Below, piece after piece: positions 30,754 to 51,548 of a stretch of 64,000 bases of DNA. Position 1 is the stretch's first letter; each line of letters opens with the position of its first letter. The notes beneath the pieces are model-generated. The model ran no database searches and was not told the DNA's origin. It saw only the letters and a list, made by a program, of their open reading frames with translations. Both the position numbers and the translations under genes were made by a program. The stretch covers positions 4,304-68,303 of the forward strand of contig CAOJRU010000004.1 in NCBI GenBank assembly GCA_948442365.1, read 5' to 3'. The DNA is from an uncultured Clostridium sp. (GTDB lineage Bacteria > Bacillota > Clostridia > TANB77 > CAG-508).

Positions 30754-30772
30754 GTTTACTACACGCTCCCTC

Positions 30773-32140: not shown

Positions 32141-32214
32141 TTTTTTCTACTCTCCTATTTCTTTTTGTTTTGTATTATATCATACTTTTACCTCATGTCA
32201 ACCTTTCCCTTTTC

Positions 32215-32482: not shown

Positions 32483-32484
32483 TT

Positions 32485-33969: not shown

Positions 33970-34112
33970 TTTTGTATTCTAACATTTATTTTTTTCGTTT
34001 TCAATACCATTTTTACTTTACAAGAAAAAAATCGAAACTTAAATTTTCATTTATTCTTGAAACTAATTTGCTGTTATGTTATCATAATAGCAAATTAGTA
34101 AGGAGATTATCT

Positions 34113-35768
34113 ATGGAATCACAAAAAACAAAGAAAAATTTAATGGTATGTAATCTATTTAAAAATTTATTATTCATTATTTCTGTTACGACTATGACCT
34201 TTTTATTAATCCATATTGAATCAGTTGAACAAAGAATTATTAGTGTTTCTTTGTCCTTTTTCGTAACTTGTTTTCTTACCTTCAAATTTCAAATACGAAA
34301 AAAGATATTTCAGAACTTCACTATAAAATATGCTATTATGGCTCTATTTTTAGCCTTAGCTACTAGCCTTGCTTTTGCCCAAATATTTTATACTTATCAT
34401 ATAGTAGTAGAACCTATGCGAACTTTCTTTTTAAATTCACCTATTCCCAATAATTTAATTATGTTTGGATTAGTTTTACTTTCTTTGTATGCTATTTATA
34501 GCTTTTACTACTATTTTATTAGTAGATTTTTACCAAAAGCCATTTTATTTAGTAAAACATTAGAAAAGCAAGAAAAATATCATTTAATTATTACTACCAT
34601 TGTTTTAGGATTGCTAATTCTTGTTATTTATTCCTATACTTCTGTATTTTATTTGCCAAAAATAAATGGAGAAGTACAAGCTTTTGATGTTATCTATTCT
34701 ACTGACACAGGCGGTCATGGCTTACTAAATGATTACATTGATATTACAGCTATTGAAAATGACATTAGGCAACCTCTTTTTGGAGTATTTTCTTTACCAT
34801 TTGCTATCCTGGCTTATGCTTTTGGTAACTTATTGAATCATTTTGATAATACTTATTTTATTTTAATTGCTATTATCCAAGTATTTTTGATGAATATTAT
34901 TAGCATCTTGTTAAGTCGATTATTGCAATTAGAAAAAAAAGAAAAAACGCTCTTTCTACTATTTTATACCATAACCTATCCTTTTCTTCTATTTGCTTTT
35001 AATTTAGAACAATATGTATTTGGTATGTTTTGGCTATTTTGCTTTTTATATTCCTGTTGGGATCATAAAAAAGGAGATAAATTTTGTTTTATTGCTGCCA
35101 CTGGCTCTTTATTAACCAATGGTATTCTCTTTCCTTTTCTAACAACAGGGAAAAAATTAAAACAATGGATAACAGATTTTGTTACTACTGGATTTGCTTT
35201 TCTAAGTGGATTGGTTATTTCTGGTCAAACTCCAGTTCTATTAAACCTTTTTTCTAGTGGTATCACACATGTGACTAAATATATGATAAGAGATGTTTCC
35301 TTTTTTCATGTGATTTGTCAATATAGTCATTTTGTAAAAAATTGTTTTATAGCACCTTTTCAAACGATAACAGAAGAAAGGCTAGGACACATTTCTTTTC
35401 AGTTAGCACCTGCTACTTCTTTAAGTGTAATTGGTACGATACTTTTCATTTTAGTAATTGTTGGTTTTATCTTAAATAGAAAAAATAAATTTGCTAAATT
35501 ATGCTTCTCTTGGATTGTGTTTTCTATGATTCTTCTTATTGGAATGAGATATGGAACAAGAGAAAATGGACTTATTTTATACTCTTTTTATTTTGGCTGG
35601 GCTTTTGTCAGTTTATTGTTTTTATTATTAAAGAAAGTATTAGATAAAAGACCAAAACTTTTACTTGTTATAGTAACCCTACTAATTGTATTCTTATTAA
35701 TTAGTAATCTAAAAGGATTGCAGGATTTAGTACAATTTGGATTACAACATTATGACCATATTATATAA
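34113..35768 (+). CDS. polytopic membrane protein (551 aa), candidate GT-C-type transferase
   Basis: Start chosen at the ATG at 34113 with AAGGAGA 8 nt upstream, where the track ORF starts at 33972. Many TMs. Loop DYIDITAIENDIRQP is acidic. It sits immediately upstream of the UbiA-like gene on the same strand. Confidence 0.45.
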   Translation: MESQKTKKNLMVCNLFKNLLFIISVTTMTFLLIHIESVEQRIISVSLSFFVTCFLTFKFQIRKKIFQNFTIKYAIMALFLALATSLAFAQIFYTYHIVVEPMRTFFLNSPIPNNLIMFGLVLLSLYAIYSFYYYFISRFLPKAILFSKTLEKQEKYHLIITTIVLGLLILVIYSYTSVFYLPKINGEVQAFDVIYSTDTGGHGLLNDYIDITAIENDIRQPLFGVFSLPFAILAYAFGNLLNHFDNTYFILIAIIQVFLMNIISILLSRLLQLEKKEKTLFLLFYTITYPFLLFAFNLEQYVFGMFWLFCFLYSCWDHKKGDKFCFIAATGSLLTNGILFPFLTTGKKLKQWITDFVTTGFAFLSGLVISGQTPVLLNLFSSGITHVTKYMIRDVSFFHVICQYSHFVKNCFIAPFQTITEERLGHISFQLAPATSLSVIGTILFILVIVGFILNRKNKFAKLCFSWIVFSMILLIGMRYGTRENGLILYSFYFGWAFVSLLFLLLKKVLDKRPKLLLVIVTLLIVFLLISNLKGLQDLVQFGLQHYDHII

Positions 35769-35781
35769 TTAGGAGATTAAA

Positions 35782-36669
35782 ATGGAAAAATTGAAGAACT
35801 ATTTAAAATTAATTAGAATAAAACACTATTTGAAGAACTTTTTAGTATTTGCCCCTTTGTTATTTAGTGGTAACTTTTTTAAAGTAGACTATTTATTAAA
35901 TACGCTATTAGCCTTTATTGCTTTTAGCTTTATTGCTTCTGTTGTTTATATTATTAATGATATTCGAGATGTTGAAAAAGATAAATTACATCCCATTAAA
36001 AAAAATCGCCCTATTGCCTCTGGTAAAGTATCAACAATTGAGGGAATTGTGCTAGCCATTATTTTATTGGTAATCGCTATCAGTATTAACTTATGGATAC
36101 ATGCCTCTTTTTTTGCTTTTATGCTATTATTGGCTTATCTATTTATGAATATTGCTTATAGTTTTGGACTTAAAAATATTCCTATCATTGATATTTTAAT
36201 ATTAAGTATTGGCTTTTTATTAAGGGTATTTTATGGCGCCACGACTTTAGAACTAAATGTTTCTAATTGGCTATATTTAACCATATTATCTATTTCTTTT
36301 TATTTAGGGCTAGGAAAAAGAAGAAATGAAATTGATAAAAGTAAGGATTCCAGAAAAGTATTAGCACAATATAATCGTAATTTTCTTGACAAAAATATGT
36401 ATATGTGTTTAGGCTTAACGATCATGTTTTATTCCCTTTGGTGCGTGGATCCTATTAATAGTTCCCGTTTTAGTGGCATTAATTATTTATTACTTACTGT
36501 ACCTATTGTTATGATAATTTGTATGAAATATAGTTTAGATATTGAAGGCGATTCTTTTGGGGACCCTGTTGATGTTGTATTTTCAGATAAGACTATTCTT
36601 GTTTTAGTTGCTATTTATGCTCTTTTTATCTTTTTACTGTTATATATATTCCCTATTTTTATTCATTAG
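35782..36669 (+). CDS. UbiA-family prenyltransferase, resembling polyprenyl-phosphate 5-phosphoribosyltransferase (DPPR-synthase-like)
   Basis: YIINDIRDVEKDKLHPIKKNRPIASGKVS has the NDxxDxxxD Asp-rich motif followed by HPxK...RPIASG. 8-9 TM. 295 aa. Confidence 0.6.
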   Translation: MEKLKNYLKLIRIKHYLKNFLVFAPLLFSGNFFKVDYLLNTLLAFIAFSFIASVVYIINDIRDVEKDKLHPIKKNRPIASGKVSTIEGIVLAIILLVIAISINLWIHASFFAFMLLLAYLFMNIAYSFGLKNIPIIDILILSIGFLLRVFYGATTLELNVSNWLYLTILSISFYLGLGKRRNEIDKSKDSRKVLAQYNRNFLDKNMYMCLGLTIMFYSLWCVDPINSSRFSGINYLLLTVPIVMIICMKYSLDIEGDSFGDPVDVVFSDKTILVLVAIYALFIFLLLYIFPIFIH

Positions 36670-36687
36670 ATGAAAGGATGATAAAAG

Positions 36688-37257
36688 ATGAATGTTTATG
36701 ATTTTGATAATACCATCTATTTAGGAGATAGTACCTTAGATTTTTACTTTTTCTGCCTCAAAAAGCAACCTTCTATTCTCCTTGCGATACCTATTCAATT
36801 TTATGGATTGATTGGTTATCGATTGCATACATTTTCTAAAACCGAAGGTAAAGAAAAATTTTATAGTTTTCTTCGTAAATTAAAAAATATAGACACTTTA
36901 TTAGAAGATTTTTGGAAGAAAAAAGAAAAAAATATAAAAAATTTTTATTTAACACAAAAACAAAAAAATGATGTTATTATTTCAGCTTCTCCTTATTTTC
37001 TATTAGAGCCTATTTGTAGAAAGTTAGAAATCCAGCATTTAATCGCTTCAAATGTAGATAAGGCTTCTGGAAAATATTTTGGATTAAATTGTTATGGAGA
37101 AGAAAAAGTCAAGCGTTTTCAACAAGAATTTTCTCTTTCTGCTATTGAAAATTTTTATTCAGATTCTTTGTCGGATGCTCCTCTTGCTCGTTATGCTAAA
37201 AAAGCCTTTTTAGTTCATAATAACACCATTATAGATTGGAAAGAAGATACCTTATAA
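36688..37257 (+). CDS. HAD-superfamily phosphatase
   Basis: N-terminal VYDFDNTIY (DxDxT motif I). 189 aa. 18 nt downstream of the UbiA-like gene. Confidence 0.6.
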   Translation: MNVYDFDNTIYLGDSTLDFYFFCLKKQPSILLAIPIQFYGLIGYRLHTFSKTEGKEKFYSFLRKLKNIDTLLEDFWKKKEKNIKNFYLTQKQKNDVIISASPYFLLEPICRKLEIQHLIASNVDKASGKYFGLNCYGEEKVKRFQQEFSLSAIENFYSDSLSDAPLARYAKKAFLVHNNTIIDWKEDTL

Positions 37258-37277: not shown

Positions 37278-40200
37278 TTAATTATTTTTTTCTATCTGCT
37301 TTTCTTCTAGTTCCTCTTCTTCTATCTCCTCTTTTTCTTCTGGTTCTTCTTTTACTTCATCTTTTGGTTTTTCTATCAATTCTCCTTCTGTTTCTTCTTC
37401 CATCGTATCTGGTAATGAGTCTACTATTGGTAATTCTTCTTGCATTTCTGTTTCTTGTTTTACTTCATTTTTTTCTTCTGGCACTTCCATCATAAATGTT
37501 CTAGTAGTTACTGTTTCAAAAAGCATTTTGTTATTTCTTAATACTATTTTACTGTTTCCTTTGAACATTCCTACCATTTCATTTGGTTGCATATTTGCTT
37601 GTTGTGTCTTATTGGTCGAAGTATTATTATTGTTTGTTAATTTTACTTCAATGTAATATTCTTTGCTTGTATCTAAATCATATACTACTCTATCATAGTA
37701 GTAATTTAATCCACCTTCATGTACTACATGCATTCCCATACTATAACTTCCATCCGTTGCTTTTAATGTCATTTCTGGCAATCCATTTGGAATATTGGCT
37801 ACTCCATCTACCCATTCTGCTATTAAAATATTCCCATGTATATATTCTCTTCCTATTTCATTGAAATCAATATGCATTGTCTTTAAGTCTGTATTAATGT
37901 CTCCTTTGTATTTGCTTCCATCTTTCATCTTAATCTTATTGTCTTCTGCTACTAATTTAATGGCATTGTATTTTCCTATTTGTTTGTTTGGTAATTTAGC
38001 AATTTGTACCGTATTGGTTGAAATATTATTTCCATTTGTTAATTTTACTTCTATCACATATTCTTTGCTACTGTCTAAATTGTCCATTACTCTGTCATAG
38101 GTATAGCTTAATCCTCCATTATGTGCTAGATGCATTCCTGTCCAGAAACTTCCATCGGTTGCTTTAATAATCATTTCTGGTAATTTATTTGGTACATTCG
38201 CTACACCATTAATCCATTCTGCTATTAAAATTTCTCCATAAATGTAATTTCTTCCTACCTCATTTTGAGCTAAATCAATTGTTTTTAAATCTGTATTAAT
38301 ATCGCCTCTATATTCATTTCCTTTGAATACTATCTTATTGTTTTCTATGGTTAAGTTTTTGTCTTTGAACATACCTACATTTCTTGAAGCATTTAAGTTT
38401 GCTCTTTGTTGTTTGTTGGTTCCTATATTTTTATTTCCCGTCAATTTTACTTCTATATAGTATTCTTTTTTGATATCTAAATTATCAATTACTCTGTCAT
38501 AATAATAATTTAATCCGCCTACATGTGCTACATACATTCCCATACTATAACTTCCATCCGTTGCTTTTAATGTCATTTCTGGTAAGCCATTTGGTGTATT
38601 AGCCATTCCATCAACCCATTCTGCTATTAAAATATTTCCATGTAGATATTCTTTTCCTACTTCATTGATTCCTATATACATCGTTTGTAAATCAGTATTA
38701 ATATCCCCTTTATATAAGCTTCCGTCTATCATTTTTATTTTATTATTTTCTGCTATTAATTTTACTTGATCATATTTGCCAATTTCTTTATTTGGCAATT
38801 TAGCTATTTGTGCTTTGCTGTTTCCTTTATTATTGATACCTGCTAATTTTACTTCAATTTCATATTCTTTTGTTACATCTAAATTATCTACAACTCTGTC
38901 ATACGTATAACTTAGTCCTCCATTATGCACTAAATGAATTCCTGTCCAGAAGCTTCCATCCGTTGCTTTGATAATCATTTCTGGTAATCCTTCTGGAACA
39001 TTAGCTACTCCATTTATCCATTCTGCTATTAAAATTTCTCCATAAATATAATGTCTTCCTACTTCATTTTGAGCTAGATTAATTGTCTTTAAGTCTGTGT
39101 TAATGTTTCCTACATATACTGGTTTTATTTTATTATCTTCTAGTAATAGTGTTCTTCCTTTAAAAGTTCCAATTTCTTTATTTGGTAGTAATACGGTTTG
39201 TGTCTTTCTGTTTCCTATATTATCCTCTCCTGTTAAAGTTGCCTCTATATAATATTGTTTTGATAAATCGATTTCATCAATAAACACATCATAATAATAA
39301 TTTAATCCTTGTAAATGGCTAATATACATTGGAATATTTCTTGAGCCATCGGTTGCTTTTAGCACTAATTCTGGTAATGAATTTGGTACATAAGCAACAT
39401 TGTTTTTCCATTCTGCTACTAACATATTTCCACTAATATAATATCTTCCTTGTGCATTTTGGTTCAATTTTATTTCTTTTAAGTCAGTATTAATATCTCC
39501 TATATACCCTCCAGTAGAGAAATAAATTTTATTGTTTTTGGTTTTTATGGTAGTTCCTTTATATTCTCCTACTGTCATATTTGGCATATTTACGTTCTGT
39601 GTCTTATTGGTTGATATATTTTTATCTGTTGTCAATTTGGCTTCTAAATAATATTCTTTATTTGTATCTAAGGTATCTAATATTCTATAATAAGAATAAC
39701 TTAATCCTCCATTATGAGTTACATTGATTCCTTGCACAATACTTCTGTCCGTTGATTTAATTGTCATTTCTGGTATCGTTTTTGGTACACATGCTACCCC
39801 ATTCACCCATTCTGCTATTAAAACTTCTCCTGTTATATAACTTCTTCCATCTGCTTCTTTTCCGATTTGCATCGTTTTTAAATCTGTATTGATGTTTCCG
39901 TAATATTCAGGATTTGGCTCTTGTGAAAGTGTTGCTGGCATATTTTCATAAATTGGAATTACAAATTCAAAATCTCTATTTAATAATAATTTTGCTCTAT
40001 TATAGGCATCATACATTAAACTAGCCTCATTTTTAGCAGCCAATAAGTTTTGCATATATTGATGCCAATATAAACCACTATAACTATCATCCACATCAAA
40101 TTTTTGTAAATATAAGGTATTTTGTCCTACATTAAGATATTTGTCCTTAATAAAAGTTCCTCCGCCTGCAATGGATAATGATCTAGATGTCCAATTTTCT

Positions 40201-40922
40201 CGTAGTGCTCTGGCTAATCCATTCGTTTTTACCTCTGCTGGACTGTTTCCTGTTGCTCCTATACTAAATAGATTATATAACCCTTTATAAACTACGCCAT
40301 TGGTTCCTAAATATTCTTCTCCTGAACTTAAGGTAGAAGTTCCTGAGCTTCCTTGTTCTTGGATCGTTCTAGTTACCAAGTGAAAGGCATTTATATTATT
40401 GTCACGTGCTGCATTGTAAAGAGCAACTATGTTATCCCAATCTTCTGTTAAAAAAGAATTTTGTGCCGCTATATGAATGGCTTTTGTATCTAACGTACCT
40501 GCAGAAGTATCTAATTTTTGAAATTGAAATATATTTTTGGCATCCAAATATAAGCGTGGATCCATTAAGTATTTTATCGCTTCTTCTGACGCACAATACC
40601 ATCCTGTATCATATAATTTAGAACCACAATCTGGGCATCTCCACTCTTCTGAATAATTATTTGGTACTAGGTTTCTTCCATGAACTCTTTCATTTCTAAT
40701 AACCGTTTCCCAATCTAATTTTGTATATAAAACTTTTATCTTTGGATAAATGGTTTGTAATTGTTTTATTTTATCCTTATAACCAGGATATTTTGCCTCA
40801 TCAATCCCATTGATATCTGAGCTAATAGTAGCAGCTTGTACTTTACCTGTGTATAATAAAATAGCCACTAATACAGCCAATAAAAATATTCCGATTTTCA
40901 TAATCTTATGTACAAATTTCAT
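37278..40922 (-). CDS. secreted peptidoglycan hydrolase: N-terminal GH73-like N-acetylglucosaminidase domain, 7 repeats of a ~125-aa module, and an E/K-rich tail
   Basis: Signal peptide MKFVHKIMKIGIFLLAVLVAILLYTGKVQA. Catalytic region with GQNTLYLQKFDV...GLYWHQY (glucosaminidase-like). The repeats share GDINTDLKT...ILIAEW.NGVAN.P...PEM.IKATDGS...H.GGL.Y.YDRV.D.LD..KEY.IEVKLT. The last ~330 aa are identical to 41207..44530. Confidence 0.65.
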   Translation of the reverse strand: MKFVHKIMKIGIFLLAVLVAILLYTGKVQAATISSDINGIDEAKYPGYKDKIKQLQTIYPKIKVLYTKLDWETVIRNERVHGRNLVPNNYSEEWRCPDCGSKLYDTGWYCASEEAIKYLMDPRLYLDAKNIFQFQKLDTSAGTLDTKAIHIAAQNSFLTEDWDNIVALYNAARDNNINAFHLVTRTIQEQGSSGTSTLSSGEEYLGTNGVVYKGLYNLFSIGATGNSPAEVKTNGLARALRENWTSRSLSIAGGGTFIKDKYLNVGQNTLYLQKFDVDDSYSGLYWHQYMQNLLAAKNEASLMYDAYNRAKLLLNRDFEFVIPIYENMPATLSQEPNPEYYGNINTDLKTMQIGKEADGRSYITGEVLIAEWVNGVACVPKTIPEMTIKSTDRSIVQGINVTHNGGLSYSYYRILDTLDTNKEYYLEAKLTTDKNISTNKTQNVNMPNMTVGEYKGTTIKTKNNKIYFSTGGYIGDINTDLKEIKLNQNAQGRYYISGNMLVAEWKNNVAYVPNSLPELVLKATDGSRNIPMYISHLQGLNYYYDVFIDEIDLSKQYYIEATLTGEDNIGNRKTQTVLLPNKEIGTFKGRTLLLEDNKIKPVYVGNINTDLKTINLAQNEVGRHYIYGEILIAEWINGVANVPEGLPEMIIKATDGSFWTGIHLVHNGGLSYTYDRVVDNLDVTKEYEIEVKLAGINNKGNSKAQIAKLPNKEIGKYDQVKLIAENNKIKMIDGSLYKGDINTDLQTMYIGINEVGKEYLHGNILIAEWVDGMANTPNGLPEMTLKATDGSYSMGMYVAHVGGLNYYYDRVIDNLDIKKEYYIEVKLTGNKNIGTNKQQRANLNASRNVGMFKDKNLTIENNKIVFKGNEYRGDINTDLKTIDLAQNEVGRNYIYGEILIAEWINGVANVPNKLPEMIIKATDGSFWTGMHLAHNGGLSYTYDRVMDNLDSSKEYVIEVKLTNGNNISTNTVQIAKLPNKQIGKYNAIKLVAEDNKIKMKDGSKYKGDINTDLKTMHIDFNEIGREYIHGNILIAEWVDGVANIPNGLPEMTLKATDGSYSMGMHVVHEGGLNYYYDRVVYDLDTSKEYYIEVKLTNNNNTSTNKTQQANMQPNEMVGMFKGNSKIVLRNNKMLFETVTTRTFMMEVPEEKNEVKQETEMQEELPIVDSLPDTMEEETEGELIEKPKDEVKEEPEEKEEIEEEELEEKQIEKNN

Positions 40923-41206
40923 CCTTTTTCACTCCTTTTTATTTCTGAGTTAAGTATATCGTATTTTTCTTTTTTTTTCAACAAATTTCTTTGTATTTTT
41001 CCTGTTAATTTTTGGCATGATTTTCTTACCTTGATTTACTTATTTGGCTATAAAAAGGCCCTTCTAAAATTTTCAAATCTATACAAATTTGGGGAAAATC
41101 TAAGTTCTTACCTAGTTAACGATAAAAAGAGAACCCTTCTCATAAAACCCAAAACTTTTTTGGTTTCATAATTAGAATTCTCTTTCTGTTTATGCCTTTT
41201 TCTAGC

Positions 41207-44200
41207 TTATTTACTCTCTTTCATTTTGTCTTTTTCTTCTTGTGTATCGTTTTTTTCTAACTCTTCTATTTCTTCGCTTTCTTTATCTTCTGCTTTTTCT
41301 TCTTTCTCTTCTTTTTTCTCTTCTTCTATTCTTGTATTTTCTATCGAATCTGTTGTTGGTAACTCTTCTAATATTTCAGTTTCTTGCTTTATTTCTTCTT
41401 TTTCTTCTGGTTTTTCTATCATAAATGTTCTAGTAGTTACTGTTTCAAAAAGCATTTTATTATTTCTTAATACTATTTTACTATTTCCTTTAAACATTCC
41501 TACCATTTCATTTGGTTGCATATTTGCTTGTTGTGTCTTATTGGTCGAAGTATTATTATTGTTTGTTAATTTTACTTCAATGTAATATTCTTTGCTTGTA
41601 TCTAAATCATATACTACTCTATCATAGTAGTAATTTAATCCACCTTCATGTACTACATGCATTCCCATACTATAACTTCCATCCGTTGCTTTTAATGTCA
41701 TTTCTGGCAATCCATTTGGAATATTGGCTACTCCATCTACCCATTCTGCTATTAAAATATTCCCATGTATATATTCTCTTCCTATTTCATTGAAATCAAT
41801 ATGCATTGTCTTTAAGTCTGTATTAATGTCTCCTTTGTATTTGCTTCCATCTTTCATCTTAATCTTATTGTCTTCTGCTACTAATTTAATGGCATTGTAT
41901 TTTCCTATTTGTTTGTTTGGTAATTTAGCAATTTGTACCGTATTGGTTGAAATATTATTTCCATTTGTTAATTTTACTTCTATCACATATTCTTTGCTAC
42001 TGTCTAAATTGTCCATTACTCTGTCATAGGTATAGCTTAATCCTCCATTATGTGCTAGATGCATTCCTGTCCAGAAACTTCCATCGGTTGCTTTAATAAT
42101 CATTTCTGGTAATTTATTTGGTACATTCGCTACACCATTAATCCATTCTGCTATTAAAATTTCTCCATAAATGTAATTTCTTCCTACCTCATTTTGAGCT
42201 AAATCAATTGTTTTTAAATCTGTATTAATATCGCCTCTATATTCATTTCCTTTGAATACTATCTTATTGTTTTCTATGGTTAAGTTTTTGTCTTTGAACA
42301 TACCTACATTTCTTGAAGCATTTAAGTTTGCTCTTTGTTCTTTATTGGTTCCTATATTTTTATTTCCTGTTAATTTTACTTCTATATAATATTCTTTTTT
42401 CGTATCTAAATCATAGATTACTCTGTCATAATAATATTTTAGACCTCCTAAATGTGCTACATGCATTCCCATACTGTAACTTCCATCGGTTGCTTTTAAT
42501 GTCATTTCTGGTAAACCACTTGGAATATTGGCTACCCCATCTATCCATTCTGCTATCAAGATATTTCCATGTATATATTCTCTTCCTACTTCATTTACTC
42601 CAATATACATCGTTTGTAAATCGGTATTGATATCTCCCCTATAAATACTTCCATCTATCATTTTTATTTTATTATTTTCTACTACTAATCTTACTTGATC
42701 ATATCTTCCAATTTCCTTATTTGGCAATTTTGCTATTTGTGCTTTGCTGTTTCCTTTATTATTGATACCTGTTAGTTTTACTTCAATTTCATATTCTTTC
42801 GTTGGATCTAAATTATCCATTACTCGATCGTACGTATAACTTAATCCTCCATTGTGTACTACATGCATACCTGTCCAAAAACTTCCATCCGTTGCTTTGA
42901 TAATCATTTCTGGTAATCCTTCTGGGATATTAGCCACTCCATCCATCCATTCTGCTATTAAAATTTCTCCATAGATATAATGTCTTCCCACTTCATTTCT
43001 GGCTAGGTTAATTGTCTTTAAGTCAGTATTAATAGCTCCTATATATGTTGGTTTTATTTTGTTATCTTCTAGTAATAGTGTTCTTCCTTTAAAAGTTCCA
43101 ATTTCCTTATTTGGTAATACTATAGTTTGTGTCTTTTGCTTTCCTATATTATCTTCTCCTACTAACGTTGCTTCTAAATAATATTGTTTTGCTAAATCTA
43201 ATGTATCTATTGCTACATTGTATTGATAATTAATTCCACTATCATACGTAATATTGACTGGTCTATCGATACTGTTATCTGTTGCTTTTAATCTTACCAC
43301 TGGCATTTTCTTTGGTATATTGGCTACTCCATTCACCCATTCTGCAATATATAGATTGCCTGAAATAGTATTTCCTTTTAGTTCTATTTGTTTTAAATCG
43401 GTATTAATATCTCCTACATATTCACCTGTTGAGAAATAAACTTTATTGTTTTTCGTTTTTATCGTAGTTCCCTTATATTCTCCTACTGTCATATTTGGCA
43501 TATTTATTGTCTGTATTTTATTATTTGATACATTATTAGCTGAAGTTAACTTAGCCTCTAAATAATATTCCCTATTAATATCTAAGGTATCTAATATTCT
43601 ATAATAAGAATAACTCAATCCTCCATTAGGAATCACATTCAATCCTTGTATAACTGCTCCATCGGTTGATTTGATTGTCATTTCTGGTGTACCATTTGGA
43701 ATATTGGCTACTCCATTCACCCATTCTGCTATTAGTACCTCTCCTGTTATATAGCTTCTTCCATCTGCTTCTTTTCCTGTTTGCATCGTTTTTAAATCCG
43801 TATTGATATCTCCTACATAGTCTCTTCTAAATAAATCTTTATTGGCAATAATCGCTTTTGCATCTGCTTCTGCCATTTTGTTTAACATAGCATCATTTAA
43901 ATAATGTTCTCTATCATAAGCGTTATTAATAAAAGCATGTTCTACTAATACAGCTGGAATATCCATATGCATTGGCCAACTTATAATACCATAATAATCA
44001 GCAACCGTTCCATCTGGATAGATGTCATTTGGTGTTCCTACTCTTACTTTTGGCTTAAAAGCAAAAGAACTAACTCCCACATTTCTTAAATTTTGTAATA
44101 TATCTTCTCCTAATTTATTAGAATATTCAAAATATCTTCTTTGTTTGGTATTATGTGTCACATATACTTCTGCTCCTGATAACCTACTAGAAGAATCGTT

Positions 44201-44530
44201 TGAATTAATATGAAAACTTACTAATAAATCGGCATTATTTTCTTTGGCTCTTTGTGCTCTTGGATATCTATCTAGTGTTTCCCAATCTTCCTTTGTTAAA
44301 ATCCCCTTAATTCCTGGTGTGGCATCTAATATTTCCTTTACTCTTACTGCTATTTTCCATGTTAAATCTTTTTCCACTAATGTTCCACCTTGTGCTCCTG
44401 GTTCACTTCCCCCATGTCCTGGATCCAGTGCTACTATAATATCATTTGCTGCATAACTGCATGTAGTAACAAGTAAGCATAACCCCATAAAAATCAATGC
44501 TGTCATTATTTTTATTCTTTTTTCTTTCAT
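41207..44530 (-). CDS. secreted N-acetylmuramoyl-L-alanine amidase (Amidase_3) with 7 repeats of the same ~125-aa module and an E/K-rich tail
   Basis: Signal peptide, then IIVALDPGHGGSEPGA...NADLLVSFHINS (Amidase_3 zinc ligand region). The C-terminal ~1 kb of DNA is near-identical to 37440..38400 (offset 3929; identical embedded track ORFs 37583..37864 and 41512..41793). Confidence 0.75.
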   Translation of the reverse strand: MKEKRIKIMTALIFMGLCLLVTTCSYAANDIIVALDPGHGGSEPGAQGGTLVEKDLTWKIAVRVKEILDATPGIKGILTKEDWETLDRYPRAQRAKENNADLLVSFHINSNDSSSRLSGAEVYVTHNTKQRRYFEYSNKLGEDILQNLRNVGVSSFAFKPKVRVGTPNDIYPDGTVADYYGIISWPMHMDIPAVLVEHAFINNAYDREHYLNDAMLNKMAEADAKAIIANKDLFRRDYVGDINTDLKTMQTGKEADGRSYITGEVLIAEWVNGVANIPNGTPEMTIKSTDGAVIQGLNVIPNGGLSYSYYRILDTLDINREYYLEAKLTSANNVSNNKIQTINMPNMTVGEYKGTTIKTKNNKVYFSTGEYVGDINTDLKQIELKGNTISGNLYIAEWVNGVANIPKKMPVVRLKATDNSIDRPVNITYDSGINYQYNVAIDTLDLAKQYYLEATLVGEDNIGKQKTQTIVLPNKEIGTFKGRTLLLEDNKIKPTYIGAINTDLKTINLARNEVGRHYIYGEILIAEWMDGVANIPEGLPEMIIKATDGSFWTGMHVVHNGGLSYTYDRVMDNLDPTKEYEIEVKLTGINNKGNSKAQIAKLPNKEIGRYDQVRLVVENNKIKMIDGSIYRGDINTDLQTMYIGVNEVGREYIHGNILIAEWIDGVANIPSGLPEMTLKATDGSYSMGMHVAHLGGLKYYYDRVIYDLDTKKEYYIEVKLTGNKNIGTNKEQRANLNASRNVGMFKDKNLTIENNKIVFKGNEYRGDINTDLKTIDLAQNEVGRNYIYGEILIAEWINGVANVPNKLPEMIIKATDGSFWTGMHLAHNGGLSYTYDRVMDNLDSSKEYVIEVKLTNGNNISTNTVQIAKLPNKQIGKYNAIKLVAEDNKIKMKDGSKYKGDINTDLKTMHIDFNEIGREYIHGNILIAEWVDGVANIPNGLPEMTLKATDGSYSMGMHVVHEGGLNYYYDRVVYDLDTSKEYYIEVKLTNNNNTSTNKTQQANMQPNEMVGMFKGNSKIVLRNNKMLFETVTTRTFMIEKPEEKEEIKQETEILEELPTTDSIENTRIEEEKKEEKEEKAEDKESEEIEELEKNDTQEEKDKMKESK

Positions 44531-44588: not shown

Positions 44589-45512
44589 TTAATAACATAT
44601 TTTACTTTTAATGGTTCCTGGTATCCATAATCCTATATATAATAATTTATTAAAAAATCCCTTTACATTTTTAAAAGAATGTTTCGTTTTAGTAAGATAG
44701 GTGAATAAAATAAAATGTTTCATTACATATAATCTTTTTGCAAAAGGAACCCCCCTCATATCATGTTCAAAAATCTCTTTAAAATATTCATAATAACCAT
44801 AAGGGTTTTCCTGTAACTGCTTTTTTATATTTTTCGTATAGCCATCTTCTTGATATTCACAAACCATGATTGGCTCATTACTACATACTATCTTATTTTG
44901 CAAATCCATTTTATGATGCATTCTAGCTTCTGTTACAAATTTTTCTTGTCTTTCTAATTCATATTTATATTTTTTTCTTATATCTGCATAAAAAACTAAG
45001 CATTTTTCGCCATCCTCTCCTTCTTTAAAATACAAATTAAACATGGTTGTTATTCTATTCTTAAAATCATTCCCCATGTTTTGTCCTTTGGTATTGTATT
45101 TTAAAAAACAAATGGCATAAATATTTTTTTCTTGGTTGTTTTCATATTCTTTTTTGATTTTCTCAAATGCCTCTGGCATAAAATAATCATCGGAATCACA
45201 TTCTATGATTAAGTCTCCTTCTGCCTTATCCATCACCTCATTAAGTGCCTTCATTTTTCCCTGATTTTCTTGAAAATAATAGTCAATTTTTATTTTCTTC
45301 TCTTGTTGCCATTTTTTTACTAATGCTAAAGTTTGATCGGTAGAACCATCATCTATTATGAGCCATTGAATTTCTACATCTTTTTTTTGGTTTCTTACGA
45401 TACTTTCATATAAATTTGGCAATAATTTAGCTCTGTTATAGGTTGCTGTTACAATGGAAAGGTTTAACATTTTTAAAATTTTCCTCCTTGTATAAAAATT
45501 TCTATTTTTCAA
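44589..45512 (-). CDS. GT2 family glycosyltransferase
   Basis: LSIVTATYNRAKLL ... WLIIDDGSTDQT ... CDSDDY. Confidence 0.75.
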   Translation of the reverse strand: MKNRNFYTRRKILKMLNLSIVTATYNRAKLLPNLYESIVRNQKKDVEIQWLIIDDGSTDQTLALVKKWQQEKKIKIDYYFQENQGKMKALNEVMDKAEGDLIIECDSDDYFMPEAFEKIKKEYENNQEKNIYAICFLKYNTKGQNMGNDFKNRITTMFNLYFKEGEDGEKCLVFYADIRKKYKYELERQEKFVTEARMHHKMDLQNKIVCSNEPIMVCEYQEDGYTKNIKKQLQENPYGYYEYFKEIFEHDMRGVPFAKRLYVMKHFILFTYLTKTKHSFKNVKGFFNKLLYIGLWIPGTIKSKICY

Positions 45513-46623
45513 TGATTTCTACTATTTTTTCTATGAGCTTTTGATTATCATATGGTACTGTTTTATCTTGTTCCTTATTTTTTTCTTTTTTGCTATCTGT
45601 TACTTGTTTCTTCAAAATTTCTTCTAATCCCTTATAAATACCTTCCTCTGTGTTAGGAAAGATTTGTGCTTTTTCATAATTTTCCACTGTTTCCCTTGCT
45701 GCTGTATCGGTTATTAAAATGGATTGATTTAATATTTTTGCTTCTTCTAGTACCATTGGATATCCTTCAAAATAGGTTAACAAACAAAAATAATCACCTT
45801 GTTTCATATAGGGATATGGATTCTCTTTTTTCCCTAATAACTTAAATGTATTTTCCACTTTTTTCTCTTTTATTAACTTTTCTAATCTTGCTTTTTGAGG
45901 ACCTTCTCCAATGATATAAAAGTTATGTTGAAATCCTTTTTGTATTAATTCACTATGTATTCCTATTAGTCTATCTATTGCCTTTTGTTCTACTAATCTT
46001 GCAACTGTTACAAAATTGACCACGTCTTTTGGAAATATAAAATCTATTTTTTGATTTGACTTTTCTATTACTGTATCTTTTTCTATATAGTTATAAATAA
46101 CTTCTAGTTGATGATTGGTTTTATATTTTTGCTGAAATTTTGCTAAATTATCTTTACTTACAAATACCAATTGTGCAAACTTCTGATAAGCTTTCTTATC
46201 TAACTTATTCTTAATTTTTGCCTTCCAACTTTCTCCAAATACTTTTGTAATGTCATTGTGAATCCAAGCTATTTTCTTATTCTTTTCTCCATAAGCTCCT
46301 ATTATTCTAGTCATTGGTCCTTCTAAAAAAGCAATTTCTTTTTCAAATTTTCCGTTTATATATTTTTTATAAATCTTTTTTTGCGTAAGCAATACTTTTA
46401 TCGCCATGCTCCATTTTTTTCTTTGCGATAATTCGTCAAATCTTTTCTCACAAAAATGCACGATCTTAATTTTATGGGATAATTCTTTTTCTAACTCTCC
46501 TTTTGCATAGAGAGTAAATATGGTAATCTCATATCTATTACACAATTGATTGGCGATATCGACTAAGGTTCTTTCTGCCCCTCCTAATGTTAAACTTGTA
46601 ATTCCAAATAAAATTTTTTTCAT
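45502..46623 (-). CDS. GT-B fold glycosyltransferase (GT1/GT4)
   Basis: N-terminal ILFGITSLTLGGAERTLVDIANQL. 373 aa. Confidence 0.65.
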   Translation of the reverse strand: MKKILFGITSLTLGGAERTLVDIANQLCNRYEITIFTLYAKGELEKELSHKIKIVHFCEKRFDELSQRKKWSMAIKVLLTQKKIYKKYINGKFEKEIAFLEGPMTRIIGAYGEKNKKIAWIHNDITKVFGESWKAKIKNKLDKKAYQKFAQLVFVSKDNLAKFQQKYKTNHQLEVIYNYIEKDTVIEKSNQKIDFIFPKDVVNFVTVARLVEQKAIDRLIGIHSELIQKGFQHNFYIIGEGPQKARLEKLIKEKKVENTFKLLGKKENPYPYMKQGDYFCLLTYFEGYPMVLEEAKILNQSILITDTAARETVENYEKAQIFPNTEEGIYKGLEEILKKQVTDSKKEKNKEQDKTVPYDNQKLIEKIVEIIEK

Positions 46624-46638
46624 TCTTCTTAGTCTCCT

Positions 46639-47595
46639 TTATATGATACTAAATATTTTACAATAAATTGGATAGGTAAAAGCATTAACCGTTCTCATAT
46701 AAAAATTTTTTCCACCTTTTCCTTGTTTCAATATTAAATTTTTCTTCCAGTTTGGAAATTTGGTATTTAAGTTTGTCCAATTTTCTTGTAATACTTTCTT
46801 TCTTACTTTTTTGTTTTGTATTTTTACCATTCGAAGTAAAGAACTACAAAGTAAATATCTGCTATAGATATATTCTAGTTGTAATTGATATTCTTCCCAA
46901 ATTCCTTTTTGTTGATAGTATGTAATCACATGCTCTAGCACATCAAAAATTTCTTTGGTTCGTTCATTTTGTACGTTAGCAATGGATCCTTCTCTTTGTA
47001 CATAATGAATACATGGTTTTTTTAAAAAAGAAATTTTAGTAAGATAAGGAATGAGCCTATAGGTAAACTCTACATCTTCATAATAATACCCTTTTGGAAA
47101 TTGAACTTGCGATGTTTCCAAAATTTCTCTCTTAATTAATTTATTCCATGCCACCACTCTTACTTTTTCTATCATTTCTTTTTTATTATGATAGATTTCT
47201 CCTCTGTCTTCTTTTCTTTTATCTGGATATTCCCAATAAAAATCGCATTCTACCATATCACTTTGTTCTTGTTTAGCTAATTGATACATTTCTTCATAAG
47301 TCGTTAATTCCACATAATCATCAGAATCTAAGAATGCAACATATTCTCCTGTAGCATAAGGTATTCCATAGTTTCTAGCGTCAGATAAACCTCCGTTTTC
47401 TTTTTCCAAATACATTATTTTATTGGGATATCTATTTTGGTATTCTTTGGCTATTTCTCCAGAACCATCTTTTGATCCATCATTTACTAAAATAATTGCA
47501 ATCTCTTTTAAAGACTGATTTATTAAACTTTCTAAGCATTTTTCCAAATGATTTTCTACATTATAAATAGGAACAATAATACTTACTTTTGGCAT
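46639..47595 (-). CDS. GT2 family glycosyltransferase
   Basis: VSIIVPIYNVENHLEKCLESLINQ ... ILVNDGSKDGS ... LDSDDY. Confidence 0.8.
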   Translation of the reverse strand: MPKVSIIVPIYNVENHLEKCLESLINQSLKEIAIILVNDGSKDGSGEIAKEYQNRYPNKIMYLEKENGGLSDARNYGIPYATGEYVAFLDSDDYVELTTYEEMYQLAKQEQSDMVECDFYWEYPDKRKEDRGEIYHNKKEMIEKVRVVAWNKLIKREILETSQVQFPKGYYYEDVEFTYRLIPYLTKISFLKKPCIHYVQREGSIANVQNERTKEIFDVLEHVITYYQQKGIWEEYQLQLEYIYSRYLLCSSLLRMVKIQNKKVRKKVLQENWTNLNTKFPNWKKNLILKQGKGGKNFYMRTVNAFTYPIYCKIFSII

Positions 47596-47624
47596 AATCT
47601 CTCCTTTAATTAGTACTTTTCAGT

Positions 47625-47829
47625 TAATACTGTCAACCTAAAATATTATCCTAAAAAGGAAGACAGTTCGTTCAAGCTAATTTTCGTAGAAATTCTAAAT
47701 CCATTTTATGGCACCCTTCCACGTACAAGACGTGAACTCTTTCCATAAAATGAATTAAGAATTTCTATCTCAATTACTTTCAATTCACTGTCTTCCTTTT
47801 TAGGATAATATTTTAGGTTGACAGTATTA
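47625..47829. repeat. structured intergenic element, family B copy 2 (perfect 43-bp terminal inverted repeats; conserved core hairpin)
   Basis: taatactgtcaacctaaaatattatcctaaaaaggaagacagt and its exact reverse complement 120 nt downstream. The core tagaaattctaaatccattttatgg...ccataaaatgaattaagaatttcta is homologous to 32215..32482. Confidence 0.75.
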
Positions 47830-47848
47830 GTTGAATCGTAACATTAAT

Positions 47849-48802
47849 TTATTTCATTTTTAAATATAATTTGACATTAAATCTTAAAAGGAATCTTTTA
47901 ATTCGTTGCTTCCCATTATATGGCTGTATATTTCGATATAATTTTCTTTCTTTTATCTCTTTGATATATTCTTCAAAATCATTTCCTTTTAAGTTTTTTG
48001 CTTTTATAATAACCGTATTGGTATAATATCTTTTAATTCGTTCTTTTGATTGTTTACTAATATCCATCTTATCAATCTTTTTTACTGCGTTATCATAATG
48101 TAATAAAACATCTTTTACCTTTTTTTTATCTTTTTGATAATCTGAATTTCTCACAATACTATTATTCGTTTGTGAATAATAGTATCCATATTCATTGGTA
48201 GAAACCACACTTTGGGCTTGTATTAGTATTAACGGCGTTAAACCAAAATCCTCGTGATAAGTTCCTACTGTATAGCTAAAATGATAATCCATAAAAAATT
48301 CTCTGCGATATAAATAAATACATGCTACCTCTAAAAAAGTATCTTTGGGACACAATTTTTCAAAAGCTTCTTCTCCTGTACATTTTTCAAATATAGGACC
48401 ATCTAATTTTTGAATTTTATTTTCCTTCTCATCGATTGTTTGCATTTTAAATTTTATTAAATCTATGTTCTGTTCCTCATACTTTTCTAAATTTTTGTAT
48501 AAGTTCTTGTCAATATAATCATCTGAATCAATAAAGGATAAATATTTTCCTGTTGCATGCTGAACGCCATAATTTCTAGCATCGGATAATCCTCCATTTT
48601 CTTTCTTCCAGTATTGTATATTGACATTGTTTTGATTGTTTTCTATCCATTGTTTAATAACGGCTTCTGAATGATCGGTTGAGCCATCATTAATAATTAT
48701 GATTTCTAAATCTTTCATTGTCTGATTTTTAATGGATTCTAGACATCTTTCTACATATTTTTCTGTATTATATACTGGCACAATAACACTTATTTTAGGC
48801 AT
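47849..48802 (-). CDS. GT2 family glycosyltransferase
   Basis: ISVIVPVYNTEKYVERCLESIKNQ ... IIINDGSTDHS ... IDSDDY. Confidence 0.8.
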   Translation of the reverse strand: MPKISVIVPVYNTEKYVERCLESIKNQTMKDLEIIIINDGSTDHSEAVIKQWIENNQNNVNIQYWKKENGGLSDARNYGVQHATGKYLSFIDSDDYIDKNLYKNLEKYEEQNIDLIKFKMQTIDEKENKIQKLDGPIFEKCTGEEAFEKLCPKDTFLEVACIYLYRREFFMDYHFSYTVGTYHEDFGLTPLILIQAQSVVSTNEYGYYYSQTNNSIVRNSDYQKDKKKVKDVLLHYDNAVKKIDKMDISKQSKERIKRYYTNTVIIKAKNLKGNDFEEYIKEIKERKLYRNIQPYNGKQRIKRFLLRFNVKLYLKMK

Positions 48803-50585: not shown

Positions 50586-50598
50586 TTTTAATCACCTA

Positions 50599-51537: not shown

Positions 51538-51548
51538 TTTGATTCCTC

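Follow-up and report, generated by a model that had tools for sequence, protein, structure and literature searches.

The window, a stretch of 64,000 nucleotides of DNA from an uncultured Clostridium sp., contains a tandem pair of ORFs on the same strand, here named ORF A and ORF B, lying between the two halves of a wall-glycopolymer locus. Each ORF consists of a signal peptide, a catalytic domain, six repeats and an acidic E/K-rich tail. The limits given for the pair in the preliminary description proved exact, and the signal peptides and acidic tails that it had read on both proteins were recovered, the former of Sec type and the latter 74 aa long with a pI of 4.0-4.4. The features are the following:

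44589..55613, minus strand: upstream half of the wall-glycopolymer locus (Pfam, synteny).
41207..44530, minus strand: ORF B, predicted secreted N-acetylmuramoyl-L-alanine amidase, 1107 aa (Pfam PF01520, PDB amidase alignments).
44450..44530, minus strand: ORF B signal peptide, aa 1-27, MKEKRIKIMTALIFMGLCLLVTTCSYA cleaved before A (read by eye from the translation).
43814..44449, minus strand: ORF B Amidase_3 catalytic domain, aa 28-239 (Pfam/NCBIfam scans, PDB alignment).
41432..43813, minus strand: ORF B repeat array, aa 240-1033, six units of 133, 125, 134, 134, 134 and 134 aa.
41493..42339: putative conversion tract, ORF B copy, 847 bp.
41210..41431, minus strand: ORF B acidic E/K-rich tail, 74 aa, pI 4.4, diverged from the ORF A tail.
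37278..40922, minus strand: ORF A, predicted secreted GH73-like peptidoglycan glycosidase, 1214 aa (phmmer matches 6fxo, 4pi7).
40833..40922, minus strand: ORF A signal peptide, aa 1-30, ending in YTGKVQA and cleaved before A (read by eye from the translation).
39900..40832, minus strand: ORF A GH73-like catalytic domain, aa 31-341 (PDB homology, homologue alignment).
37503..39899, minus strand: ORF A repeat array, aa 342-1140, six units of 133, 130, 134, 134, 134 and 134 aa.
37564..38410: putative conversion tract, ORF A copy, 847 bp, perfectly identical to 41493-42339.
37281..37502, minus strand: ORF A acidic E/K-rich tail, 74 aa, pI 4.05 (composition).
23383..37257: downstream half of the glycopolymer locus (Pfam, synteny).

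Both catalytic domains had been named correctly beforehand, as Amidase_3 in ORF B and GH73-like in ORF A. ORF B, whose signal peptide shows, by eye, a basic n-region, a hydrophobic core and an AXA-like SYA cleavage site, matched Amidase_3 (PF01520) with an E-value of 3e-34 (119 bits against a cutoff of 27) over model positions 1-173 of 174, as well as the PDB amidases 8c0j (4e-17) and Cwp6 5j72 (3.3e-7). Its DPGHGG, VEKD and VSFH motifs align with those of 8c0j and 5emi, and LVEH with the LVE of 5emi. The zinc ligands His, Glu and His and the catalytic Glu are all present (the His of GHGG, the Glu of EKD, the His of SFH and the Glu of LVEH), roles that we assign from our knowledge of the Amidase_3 family. 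Regarding ORF A, phmmer aligned its N-terminal domain with the S. aureus Atl glucosaminidase 6fxo (E 1.6e-12, query residues 78-273) and with AtlE 4pi7 (E 5e-8). The Glu of its IQEQG, which by our knowledge of the GH73 family we take to be the catalytic residue in an E-x-G motif, aligns with the Glu of LLETG (6fxo) and LVETG (4pi7), and at least 90% of 107 aligned homologues retain it. This domain also has a conserved Cys triad (W-C-x2-C...GW-C) together with the motifs QEQG, GQNTLY and QYMQN. Pfam Glucosaminidase (PF01832) did not match ORF A even at E <= 1, and hence we call it ‘GH73-like’, a divergent subfamily; its homologues had no precomputed Pfam match on that domain. The two Sec-secreted peptidoglycan hydrolases would be transcribed in tandem, with the amidase gene upstream and the glycosidase gene downstream. 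The amidase would cut the peptide stem off the glycan, and the glycosidase, to which we assign no bond specificity, would cut the glycan strand as GH73-type enzymes do. In their catalytic domains these are otherwise ordinary autolysins, and the novelty lies in the putative wall-targeting module.

This module occurs six times in each protein, as given by six INTDL motifs and a DNA period of 402 nt, and not seven times, as had been counted before. The unit, previously put at ~125 aa, is 134 aa long, with the exception of one of 125, one of 130 and two of 133 aa among the twelve. Repeats are colinear between the two proteins, with identities of 80, 66, 88, 90, 100 and 100% between units of the same rank, a colinearity that the sequences place far beyond chance. 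Scans of both proteins against Pfam (E <= 1) and NCBIfam matched no repeat family. When Pfam was run on ten window repeats (E <= 10) and on 50 diverse family members (E <= 1), only scattered noise was obtained, and the matches to Choline_bind_1 (PF01473) in 2 of the 50 members were at noise level (best E 0.1). Profiles built from 10 and from 50 repeat sequences found no sequence match in the PDB by hmmsearch, and in the Pfam and NCBIfam scans the repeat had, beyond this noise, no profile-HMM match to LysM, SH3b/SH3_3, GW, CWB2, choline-binding, SLH, SPOR, ChW or PG_binding. According to these results, the repeat forms a sequence family without an entry in Pfam, NCBIfam or PDB, and the first impression that it stands outside the familiar wall-binding families holds, as no consistent match was found in any of the three. 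With pI values of 5.1-8.6, mostly 5-7, the repeats are near-neutral to acidic and have no net positive charge, so simple electrostatic binding to anionic teichoic acid is not indicated. The conserved positions across the 50 diverse repeats include the polar or aromatic residues E30, W31, D51, Y69, D71, D78, K81 and N94.

An AlphaFold (AF2) model of ORF A unit 5 was all-beta, with a pLDDT of 87.8 and a pTM of 0.82, and on this model we confidently predict that the repeat is an Ig-like beta-sandwich. A two-repeat model gave a pTM of 0.51, with undefined inter-domain geometry. The only strong structural neighbours of the single-repeat model were the N-terminal domain of TarL/TarK, the C1 domain of TarS, and RmlT, that is, accessory domains of wall-teichoic-acid enzymes; as modelled, the repeat shares fold and topology with the Ig-like domain of the TarS-C1 / TarL-NTD type. 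Foldseek also gave TarS as best match, with weak E-values (best 1.4e-3). Since the structural alignments show 7-8% sequence identity and neither repeat profile (10 or 50 sequences, hmmsearch of PDB, E <= 10) retrieved TarS, TarL, TarK or RmlT, the repeat and the teichoic-acid-enzyme domains may have converged on a common Ig-like topology. The C1 and C2 domains of TarS are CBM48/CBM68-like and have been proposed to bind poly-ribitol-phosphate; their removal raises the Km for polyRboP and lowers processivity (PMC5156392). The matching domains in TarL, TarS and RmlT have been documented mainly as oligomerisation domains, polymer binding there being only proposed (PMC10901376, PMC11697029). The parent proteins of the TarL/TarK NTD, TarS C1 and the RmlT oligomerisation subdomain act on wall glycopolymers. 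These domains are cytoplasmic, single-copy and oligomerising, whereas the window repeat is predicted to be extracellular and is found in tandem.

The repeat family is tiny, with 123 clusters among 1.84 billion representatives. Autolysins carry 5-6 copies and other proteins two. Pairs of repeats were found at the C-terminus of BspA-type LRR proteins, transglutaminase-like proteins, papain and subtilisin proteases, CAP, DUF5722, pectinesterase and pectate lyase, the latter already having its own CBM77, and pairs were seen on Big_2 proteins too. Four consecutive genes in one 40%-GC genome each end in a repeat pair, and in P0031 the order of the modules is reversed. The LPXTG motif was absent from the tail sequences examined for repeat-bearing ORFs. 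Outside the clade, the closest homologues of the GH73-like domain have SH3_3 plus dockerin where the repeats sit in ORF A. Their catalytic domain is 45-49% identical to that of ORF A over ~99% of its length, with the same motifs, and in both cases a presumptive C-terminal targeting region follows it: SH3_3 with type I dockerin and EF-hand (~170 aa) in the homologues, six repeats and the acidic tail in ORF A. Judged from these domain architectures, the distribution of the repeat is the pattern of a surface-anchoring module.

Regarding the surroundings of the pair, the upstream half of the locus encodes four GT2, two GT1/GT4, one DUF6020 GT-C-like protein, one HAD-fusion and one protein without Pfam match. 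The downstream half encodes GT2 and GtrA, a PRPP synthetase, an ABC-2 permease/ATPase pair and an O-antigen-ligase-like protein, followed by DUF6020, GT1, one protein without Pfam match, a DUF6080-like protein, UbiA and HAD. In genomes L003-L019 the pair always lies between a GT2-GT2-GT1-GT2 block and a GT1/DUF6020/ABC-2/PRPP-synthetase/GtrA block, with the order GT2-GT2-GT1-GT2 and then amidase maintained, and about a dozen MAGs have it at the same place in the wall-glycopolymer locus. This conserved linkage is an association of the gene pair with the locus, not an identification of the ligand. Between species, the repeats are ~45% identical, the catalytic domains 57-77% and the ABC transporter ~90%.

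A wall- or surface-targeting role is suggested by four observations: the module is common to unrelated secreted passenger domains, it takes the position of SH3_3 plus dockerin in the GH73-like homologues, the gene pair keeps its place in the glycopolymer locus in many MAGs, and the fold is nearest to the Ig/CBM-like domains of teichoic-acid enzymes. We therefore consider it fairly probable that the repeats are wall-targeting modules on both autolysins, with the locus-encoded glycopolymer as the most probable ligand and the two arrays kept alike by conversion. The repeats would be non-covalent cell-surface targeting domains, with multivalent binding to a secondary cell-wall glycopolymer, most probably that which the surrounding ABC-transporter-dependent glycosyltransferase locus makes and exports; bound in this way, the two enzymes would stay in the producer's wall. 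It is from the above observations that we infer that the repeats bind anything, and that they bind a glycopolymer rather than peptidoglycan; any role of the acidic tails is likewise putative.

One could argue that the repeats are passive Ig-like spacers or self-association modules that recognise no wall polymer and build a stalk to carry the catalytic domains across a thick wall, or else a lattice or an oligomer. The closest structural relatives (TarL NTD, TarS C1 and RmlT) are, by experiment, oligomerisation domains, Ig-like beta-sandwiches are common stalk elements in Gram-positive surface proteins, and the lack of net positive charge also fits. We find this unlikely, as a spacer gives no reason for the placing of just two copies at the very C-terminal end of so many secreted enzymes of unrelated kinds. 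These proteins have to be retained somehow, and they have no element in common but the module. Besides, bona fide targeting modules (SH3_3, dockerin) fill the same position in the GH73-like homologues, and the conserved positions include many polar and aromatic residues and not core hydrophobics alone.

Slightly less likely still is that the repeats bind the wall but recognise peptidoglycan itself, as LysM, SH3b and SPOR do, instead of the locus glycopolymer. Peptidoglycan is the substrate of both enzymes, SH3_3 is found on the homologous GH73-like enzymes, peptidoglycan binding is frequent among SH3b-type domains, and the near-neutral pI of the repeats would suit a neutral glycan. Against this, the repeats diverge much faster than the catalytic domains and the ABC transporter, which is expected if the ligand is a variable glycopolymer and unexpected if it is the conserved peptidoglycan. 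The location of the pair within a glycopolymer locus in about a dozen genomes, and fold neighbours that are teichoic-acid enzymes, also argue against peptidoglycan.

We hold it to be very improbable that the repeats are a CBM or adhesin directed at glycans outside the cell (plant polysaccharide of the diet, mucin, other cells) and not an anchor to the own wall, an idea that could be raised by the two-copy versions on pectate lyase, pectinesterase, DUF5722, LRR/BspA and Big_2 proteins. An autolysin has to stay on the wall of its producer, the pectate lyase comes with a pectin-binding CBM77 of its own, the passengers (proteases, CAP, amidase, GH73, pectinases) have no common substrate, and linkage between the gene pair and the wall-polymer locus is tight.

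The wall-targeting reading also includes that conversion keeps the two arrays alike. An identical block of ~1 kb at 37440-38400, covering the last ~330 codons of both genes, had been described. Its offset of 3929 bp was correct, but the perfect block comprises 847 bp (37564-38410 = 41493-42339) and stops short of the gene ends; the ~70 tail codons that follow diverge, with a DNA identity of 74% falling to about 50%. It takes in the last part of repeat 4, all of repeat 5 and the greater part of repeat 6, and gives 306 identical aa in the proteins (aa 839-1144 of the glycosidase and 732-1037 of the amidase). On its 5' side the paralogues are ~88% identical for ~800 bp more and then fall to background in the catalytic domains. 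Within a genome, the last repeats are 100/100% identical in the window, 97/100% in L012 and 82/94% in L014, while between the window and L012 the identity of orthologous repeats is ~45%. Exact tracts were found at differing positions, with 847 bp in the window, 842 bp in L012, 323 bp in L014 and 269 bp in L003, and the same 306-aa tract is present in four independent assemblies of the species, whose proteins are 99.3-99.8% identical. The gene conversion suggested in the preliminary description is thus corroborated by C-terminal repeats closer within than between genomes, by tracts that vary by species and by the agreement of the four assemblies; from sequence comparison, recurrent conversion, or concerted evolution of the two arrays, is strongly supported. 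That the identity is an artefact of metagenome assembly, in which two merely similar repeats were collapsed or given one consensus, is the most improbable of all these alternatives: the two proteins of the window do map to an 84.8-kb contig, close relatives are labelled MAGs, and short-read assemblers can pop bubbles and homogenise near-identical repeats, but the 306-aa tract is the same in the four assemblies, the sister lineage L003 has a different one, distant species show separate tracts (842 and 323 bp), and the 5' identity declines smoothly (100%, ~88%, background), as expected for older nested conversion events. Recurrent conversion, strongest at the 3' repeats, would keep both enzymes tuned to one fast-evolving ligand.

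In order to contextualize this arrangement, it can be compared with known systems. The likeness to staphylococcal Atl that had been proposed was right in part: the glycosidase is truly homologous to the Atl glucosaminidase (6fxo), but the resemblance of the amidase is functional only, as that of Atl is an Amidase_2 and that of the window an Amidase_3. Atl/AtlE and the window pair both combine an amidase and a GH73 glycosidase with one common repeat type, wall-targeting in Atl and predicted to be so here. Atl/AtlE is one processed polyprotein with its repeats between the catalytic domains, whereas the window pair is encoded by two separate genes with the repeats after each catalytic domain. The Atl repeats, which bind teichoic acid, are GW/SH3b-like, while the window repeat is an unrelated 134-aa Ig-like sandwich without Pfam match. 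By analogy, the closest functional analogue of the window arrangement is the pair formed by LytA (amidase) and LytB (GH73 glucosaminidase) of S. pneumoniae, separately encoded enzymes with one repeat type in common, whose choline-binding repeats dock both on a teichoic-acid decoration. Those repeats are beta-hairpins of ~20 aa (PF01473) and not ~134-aa sandwiches, the lytA and lytB genes are neither adjacent nor inside a polymer locus, and we know of no large-tract gene conversion between them. Finally, C. difficile Cwp6, the protein of the 5j72 match, joins an Amidase_3 domain to wall-polymer-binding repeats. Its CWB2 module is one anchor on many unrelated surface proteins, with genes clustered beside the locus for synthesis of the polymer (PSII), and the window module resembles the Cwp family in the diversity of its passengers. 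CWB2 has an alpha/beta fold and is deployed in triplets, whereas the window module is all-beta, Ig-like and present in 5-6 copies on autolysins and two elsewhere; Pfam scans of both proteins, the window repeats and 50 members gave no sequence relationship to CWB2.

More tentatively, and with a probability that we place well below that of the wall-targeting role, the repeat may share ancestry with the Ig-like domains of TarS, TarL, TarK and RmlT, and may found a new family of secondary-cell-wall-polymer-binding domains that serves as a general surface-anchoring tag of these gut Clostridia. If so, one polymer-recognition fold would be used on both sides of the membrane, holding the nascent chain inside and anchoring autolysins and the surface proteome outside. 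With its two main carriers encoded inside the polymer locus, the module would evolve in step with that locus, and it would fill, in poorly known uncultured gut Clostridia, the role that CWB2 and SLH have in other Firmicutes.

The two genes occupy exactly the limits claimed in the preliminary description and lie on the same strand, with a spacer of 284 bp between them, in a window of about 29% GC:

41207-44530, minus strand: ORF B (amidase), the upstream gene, 1107 aa
37278-40922, minus strand: ORF A (glycosidase), the downstream gene, 1214 aa
37281-37502: acidic tail of ORF A
41210-41431: acidic tail of ORF B

Both proteins begin, as read from their sequence, with a putative signal peptide of the typical Sec type, in line with the earlier reading. 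The proposed Amidase_3 domain of ORF B was found at full length by Pfam (PF01520, 119 bits, E 3e-34). Compared with solved amidases, ORF B matched 8c0j (4e-17) and C. difficile Cwp6 (5j72, 3e-7), as well as 5emi, AmiC and CwlV, and the GHGG His, EKD Glu, SFH His and LVEH Glu are all present in the alignment, which points to a regular Amidase_3 enzyme. Regarding ORF A, the N-terminal domain gave no match above threshold to the Pfam Glucosaminidase model. It shows homology to GH73 enzymes of known structure (S. aureus Atl glucosaminidase 6fxo, E 1.6e-12; AtlE 4pi7, 5e-8), and its IQEQG Glu aligns with the E-T-G glutamate of both. An alignment of 107 ORF A homologues shows at least 90% conservation of this Glu, of the Cys triad W-C-x2-C...GW-C and of the motifs MDPR, FQF, GQNTLY and QYMQN. 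The GH73-like label thus stands by homology and catalytic Glu, below the Pfam threshold, and the enzyme is a divergent GH73.

The catalytic domain of ORF A (39900-40832, aa 31-341) falls within a subfamily of considerable size (787 hits at E <= 1e-10). Pfam gives no hit on the catalytic part of its members, many of which combine SH3_3 with type I dockerin, a combination that is uncommon among autolysins. In its fuller form the Cys triad reads W-C-x2-C...Y..GW-C-A-S, and it may be a metal site or a disulfide. The two enzymes also share a local similarity of 31 aa with 39% identity, between ORF A aa 53-83 (40676-40766, ...LYTKLDWETV..., in the N-terminal part of the GH73-like enzyme) and ORF B aa 64-94 (44249-44339, ...ILTKEDWETL..., in the amidase domain). 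Its BLAST E-value of 3e-4 came from a database of two sequences, so it is probably a chance match.

In agreement with the original claim, the module following these domains matched no known wall-binding family in Pfam, NCBIfam or PDB sequence searches. Scanning the two proteins, 10 window repeats and 50 diverse family members with Pfam (2025 copy, permissive thresholds) gave no consistent match, only noise; NCBIfam (2026) found no repeat family in the two proteins, and hmmsearch of the PDB with two profiles returned chance matches only (e.g. CTP synthase and a designed protein). Known wall-binding families were rejected on the noise-only Pfam and NCBIfam scans, and since the profiles of those families do not recognize the repeat, it lies outside those of Atl, LytA/LytB and CWB2. 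No published description of such a repeat turned up in a literature search. The module itself is in neither Pfam nor the PDB, and the two-protein scan found no NCBIfam family for it.

Structure prediction of a single repeat had been suggested, and AlphaFold2, run on repeat 5 with the paralogous repeats as alignment, gave a confident all-beta model (pLDDT 87.8, pTM 0.82). Modeling of two repeats was confident for each domain and not for their relative orientation (pTM 0.51). The best Foldseek match was TarS, and the N-terminal domains of TarL and TarK were among the top matches, all with weak E-values; identity between the repeat and the neighbouring domains of TarS, TarL, TarK and RmlT is only 7-8%. 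These four are all enzymes of wall teichoic acid. The N-terminal domain of TarL has an Ig-like fold, plays a central part in tetramerisation and is a structural homologue of TarS C1 (PMC10901376). TarS C1 and C2 are CBM48/CBM68-like and have been proposed to bind poly-ribitol-phosphate; their deletion raises the Km for polyRboP and lowers processivity (PMC5156392). The corresponding subdomain of RmlT builds the dimer and contributes to a tunnel in which the polymer has been proposed to lie (PMC11697029). The repeat is therefore predicted to fold as an Ig/CBM-like sandwich. The nearest relatives of this fold deal with wall glycopolymers and have oligomerisation as their demonstrated role; it is shared with the TarS-C1/TarL-NTD group, to which sequence searches showed no homology. 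We also considered a phage origin, including a phage receptor-binding or endolysin binding domain, and rejected it because predicted viral proteins yielded no comparable fold (BFVD, best TM about 0.45) and because the context is one of chromosomal housekeeping genes and a glycopolymer locus.

An exhaustive HMMER scan of 1.84 billion cluster representatives identified only 123 that bear the repeat. A word-indexed homology search with it yielded six metagenome fragments only, the contigs, of 1.1 and 4.8 kb, being without useful context. Scanning one genome per species, we detected 18 loci. They all come from MAGs of uncultured Clostridia or Clostridium, and each repeat-bearing ORF in them is an amidase or a GH73-like enzyme. 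The complete ORFs have five or six repeats, with fewer on contig-end fragments, and where both genes lie on one contig the amidase always comes first and the glycosidase second. One family protein (P0031, 897 aa) presents the reversed order: its three repeats (aa 40-455) lie N-terminal to the GH73-like domain (aa 457-745).

Besides, a distinct subgroup of the 123 representatives carries just two copies, C-terminal, matching the first ~105 residues of the unit, that is, its core sandwich. These are attached to unrelated passengers: BspA-type LRR with a transglutaminase-like domain, LRR with CAP, papain-type protease with lectin-like and Big_2 domains, subtilase, M6 peptidase, beta-helix, DUF5722, pectinesterase, pectate lyase with CBM77, and a canonical PF01832 glucosaminidase. 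In one genome of 40% GC (GCA_965318035.1, CBDNMX010000028.1, 1-13108), four consecutive large genes each end in a repeat pair. This run lies directly upstream of a ribosomal-protein operon and encodes products of 864+, 735, 1860 and 1035 aa; the last is a pectate lyase with CBM77, and the other three have no Pfam match at all. Outside the clade, the nearest homologues of the GH73-like domain (45-49% identical over the full domain, 787 hits in all) have SH3_3 and type I dockerin in place of the repeats. The repeat, which stands where homologues have known targeting modules and is fused to many secreted enzymes of unrelated kinds, appears to behave like a cell-surface anchoring tag.

The gene pair sits inside a wall-glycopolymer locus of roughly 32 kb (23.4-55.6 kb), flanked by housekeeping genes (TrpRS, Obg, MreB, DisA, RadA, IMPDH). 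The locus encodes several GT2 and GT1/GT4 transferases, an O-antigen-ligase-like protein, GtrA, an ABC-2 permease/ATPase pair, HAD phosphatases including the one listed here, and the following:

24931-25872: PRPP synthetase
28969-30753 and 48795-50585: two DUF6020 GT-C-like membrane proteins
34110-35768: DUF6080-like GT-C-like membrane protein
35782-36669: UbiA-family prenyltransferase
36688-37257: HAD phosphatase

In the related loci L003-L019, wherever flanks are available, the pair occupies the same slot, after a GT2-GT2-GT1-GT2 block and with a GT1/DUF6020/ABC-2/PRPP-synthetase/GtrA block on its other side. Between species, identity is about 90% for the ABC ATPase, 70-77% for the amidase domain, 57% for the GH73-like domain, 53-74% for the transferases and 45% for the repeats, which are therefore the fastest-evolving of the parts compared. 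The set of PRPP synthetase, UbiA, HAD and GT-C proteins resembles the DPR/DPA-type polyprenyl-phosphoribose donor pathway of mycobacterial arabinan, a likeness that would suggest that the polymer is pentofuranosylated extracytoplasmically. Both the window and the sister lineage L003 have the plus-strand block 33972-37257. In the other loci, no homologues of its three genes were detected beside the autolysin genes, and GT1/DUF6020 or ABC-transporter genes follow the pair directly. Elsewhere in the window, the stretch 2496-10347 holds six ORFs of 170-248 aa without a Pfam match at E <= 1e-4, together with a 463-aa ORF with a sub-threshold SecD_1st match only (4379-5770) and a 195-aa ORF with an HD domain (5789-6376).

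Our preferred reading, which we consider probable, is that two secreted peptidoglycan hydrolases with complementary bond specificities would be retained in the producer's wall through multivalent, non-covalent binding of the six Ig-like modules of each enzyme to a secondary polymer of the wall, most probably the one that the locus around them makes, and that gene conversion would keep the two targeting arrays alike while polymer and module co-evolve. Gene architecture, catalytic assignments, the lack of a known family for the repeat, its predicted fold, distribution, synteny and concerted evolution are what the analysis shows; the binding itself, its ligand and any function of the acidic tails we infer. 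The functional logic is that of Atl and LytA/LytB, with an amidase and a GH73 enzyme sharing one repeat, here a putative binder of wall polymer. The genomic logic is that of the C. difficile CWB2 family, in which one anchoring module serves many surface proteins, including the Amidase_3 protein Cwp6, and the genes likewise adjoin a polymer locus. The repeat belongs to none of the repeat families of those systems. Electrostatic binding to teichoic acid was set aside because the repeats are not basic. A broader proposal, that the polymer-handling domain of TarS/TarL has an extracellular relative in this module, which would be the general surface anchor of this uncultured lineage, we offer only tentatively, as rather doubtful. 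The oligomerisation role of the structural neighbours and the non-basic pI of the repeats would also fit passive spacers or self-association modules, which we regard as unlikely. Slightly less probable again is peptidoglycan itself as the ligand, and binding to external glycans seems very improbable.

Each protein has six repeats (six INTDL motifs, 402-nt DNA period) instead of the seven initially counted, and the units, put at ~125 aa, range from 125 to 134 aa. The arrays are colinear: each amidase repeat is closest to the glycosidase repeat of the same rank, with identities of 80, 66, 88, 90, 100 and 100%. An identical block had been reported as ~1 kb at 37440-38400. The block is real and its offset is indeed 3929 bp; the longest perfect match covers 847 bp (37564-38410 = 41493-42339), spanning the last 35 residues of repeat 4, the whole of repeat 5 and most of repeat 6. 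The proteins are identical along 306 aa (glycosidase 839-1144 = amidase 732-1037). Upstream (5') of the block, identity between the genes is about 88% over roughly 800 bp, and then falls to background level in the catalytic domains. The acidic tails, also described previously, are there in both proteins (74 aa each, pI 4.05 and 4.38), and since they diverge past the block, it does not comprise the last ~330 codons, as had been stated. Across most orthologues the tails keep their character (rich in E/K/Q/N, pI about 4) and not their sequence; the ORFs of L011, L013, L017 and L018 stop just past the last repeat, without a tail. No LPXTG motif is present in any tail inspected among the window and orthologue ORFs.

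The two window proteins are recorded from a contig of 84.8 kb. The same 306-aa tract is found in four independent assemblies of the species, whose proteins are 99.3-99.8% identical. The sister lineage L003 (90-94% DNA identity) has a different tract, with 255 identical aa from glycosidase residue 717, perfect at the DNA level over 269 bp only, and distant species carry tracts of their own (L012, 842 bp; L014, 323 bp). An assembly artefact is hardly credible given these four concordant assemblies and the lineage-specific tracts, although '100%' may be slightly overstated because short-read assemblers can homogenise a few SNPs. In the distant species, paralogues share 82-100% identity in their last repeats, against only ~45% for orthologous repeats between species. 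Tracts that differ by lineage and paralogues closer than orthologues bear, at the sequence level, the signature of recurrent gene conversion, i.e. concerted evolution, as the conversion claim had it. Modular autolysins with targeting repeats homogenised by conversion are a well-known kind of system. Repeat 5 (37905-38306 and 41834-42235) is 79% identical to repeat 3 and is missing from five-repeat orthologues (L004, L006, L012, L014 and L015), so it is a lineage-specific extra unit; as it lies within the conversion tract, conversion may have carried the gain of this unit from one paralogue into the other.

Regarding expression, a c-di-AMP riboswitch sits upstream of some wall-hydrolase genes. 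We sought one with Rfam at the gathering threshold over the whole window, which gave no regulatory RNA and only the following:

10899-11065 and 60607-60691, minus strand: three tRNA genes

Neither between nor after the autolysin genes (40923-41206, 44531-44588 region) did we find an intrinsic terminator-like site. A promoter-like site (TTGAAA-17-TATACT, 40981-40953, minus strand) lies just upstream of the GH73-like gene; such sites are fewer than the shuffled expectation and hence uninformative. The autolysin genes may share a transcript with the glycosyltransferases upstream of them and have a further, internal promoter.

To our knowledge, the retention of surface proteins in Gram-positive bacteria has been explained for only a handful of module types (LysM, SH3b, GW, CWB2, SLH, choline-binding, sortase), most of them, as far as we know, defined in cultured pathogens. 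To this set our results add a sequence-distinct module from uncultured gut Clostridia that apparently tags core autolysins and, as a two-copy version, proteases, LRR proteins resembling adhesins and enzymes that degrade pectin. Should binding fail to be confirmed, the pair would be ordinary modular autolysins with Ig-like spacers. If it is confirmed, the module would give a handle on the wall glycopolymer of these organisms, and it could serve as a species-specific affinity reagent to label or sort uncultured cells and as the part that targets engineered lysins. Its structural link to domains of TarS and TarL offers a testable idea on what those domains recognise, and the recurrent conversion between functionally different enzymes would be a clean natural example of selection matching two targeting arrays to one ligand.
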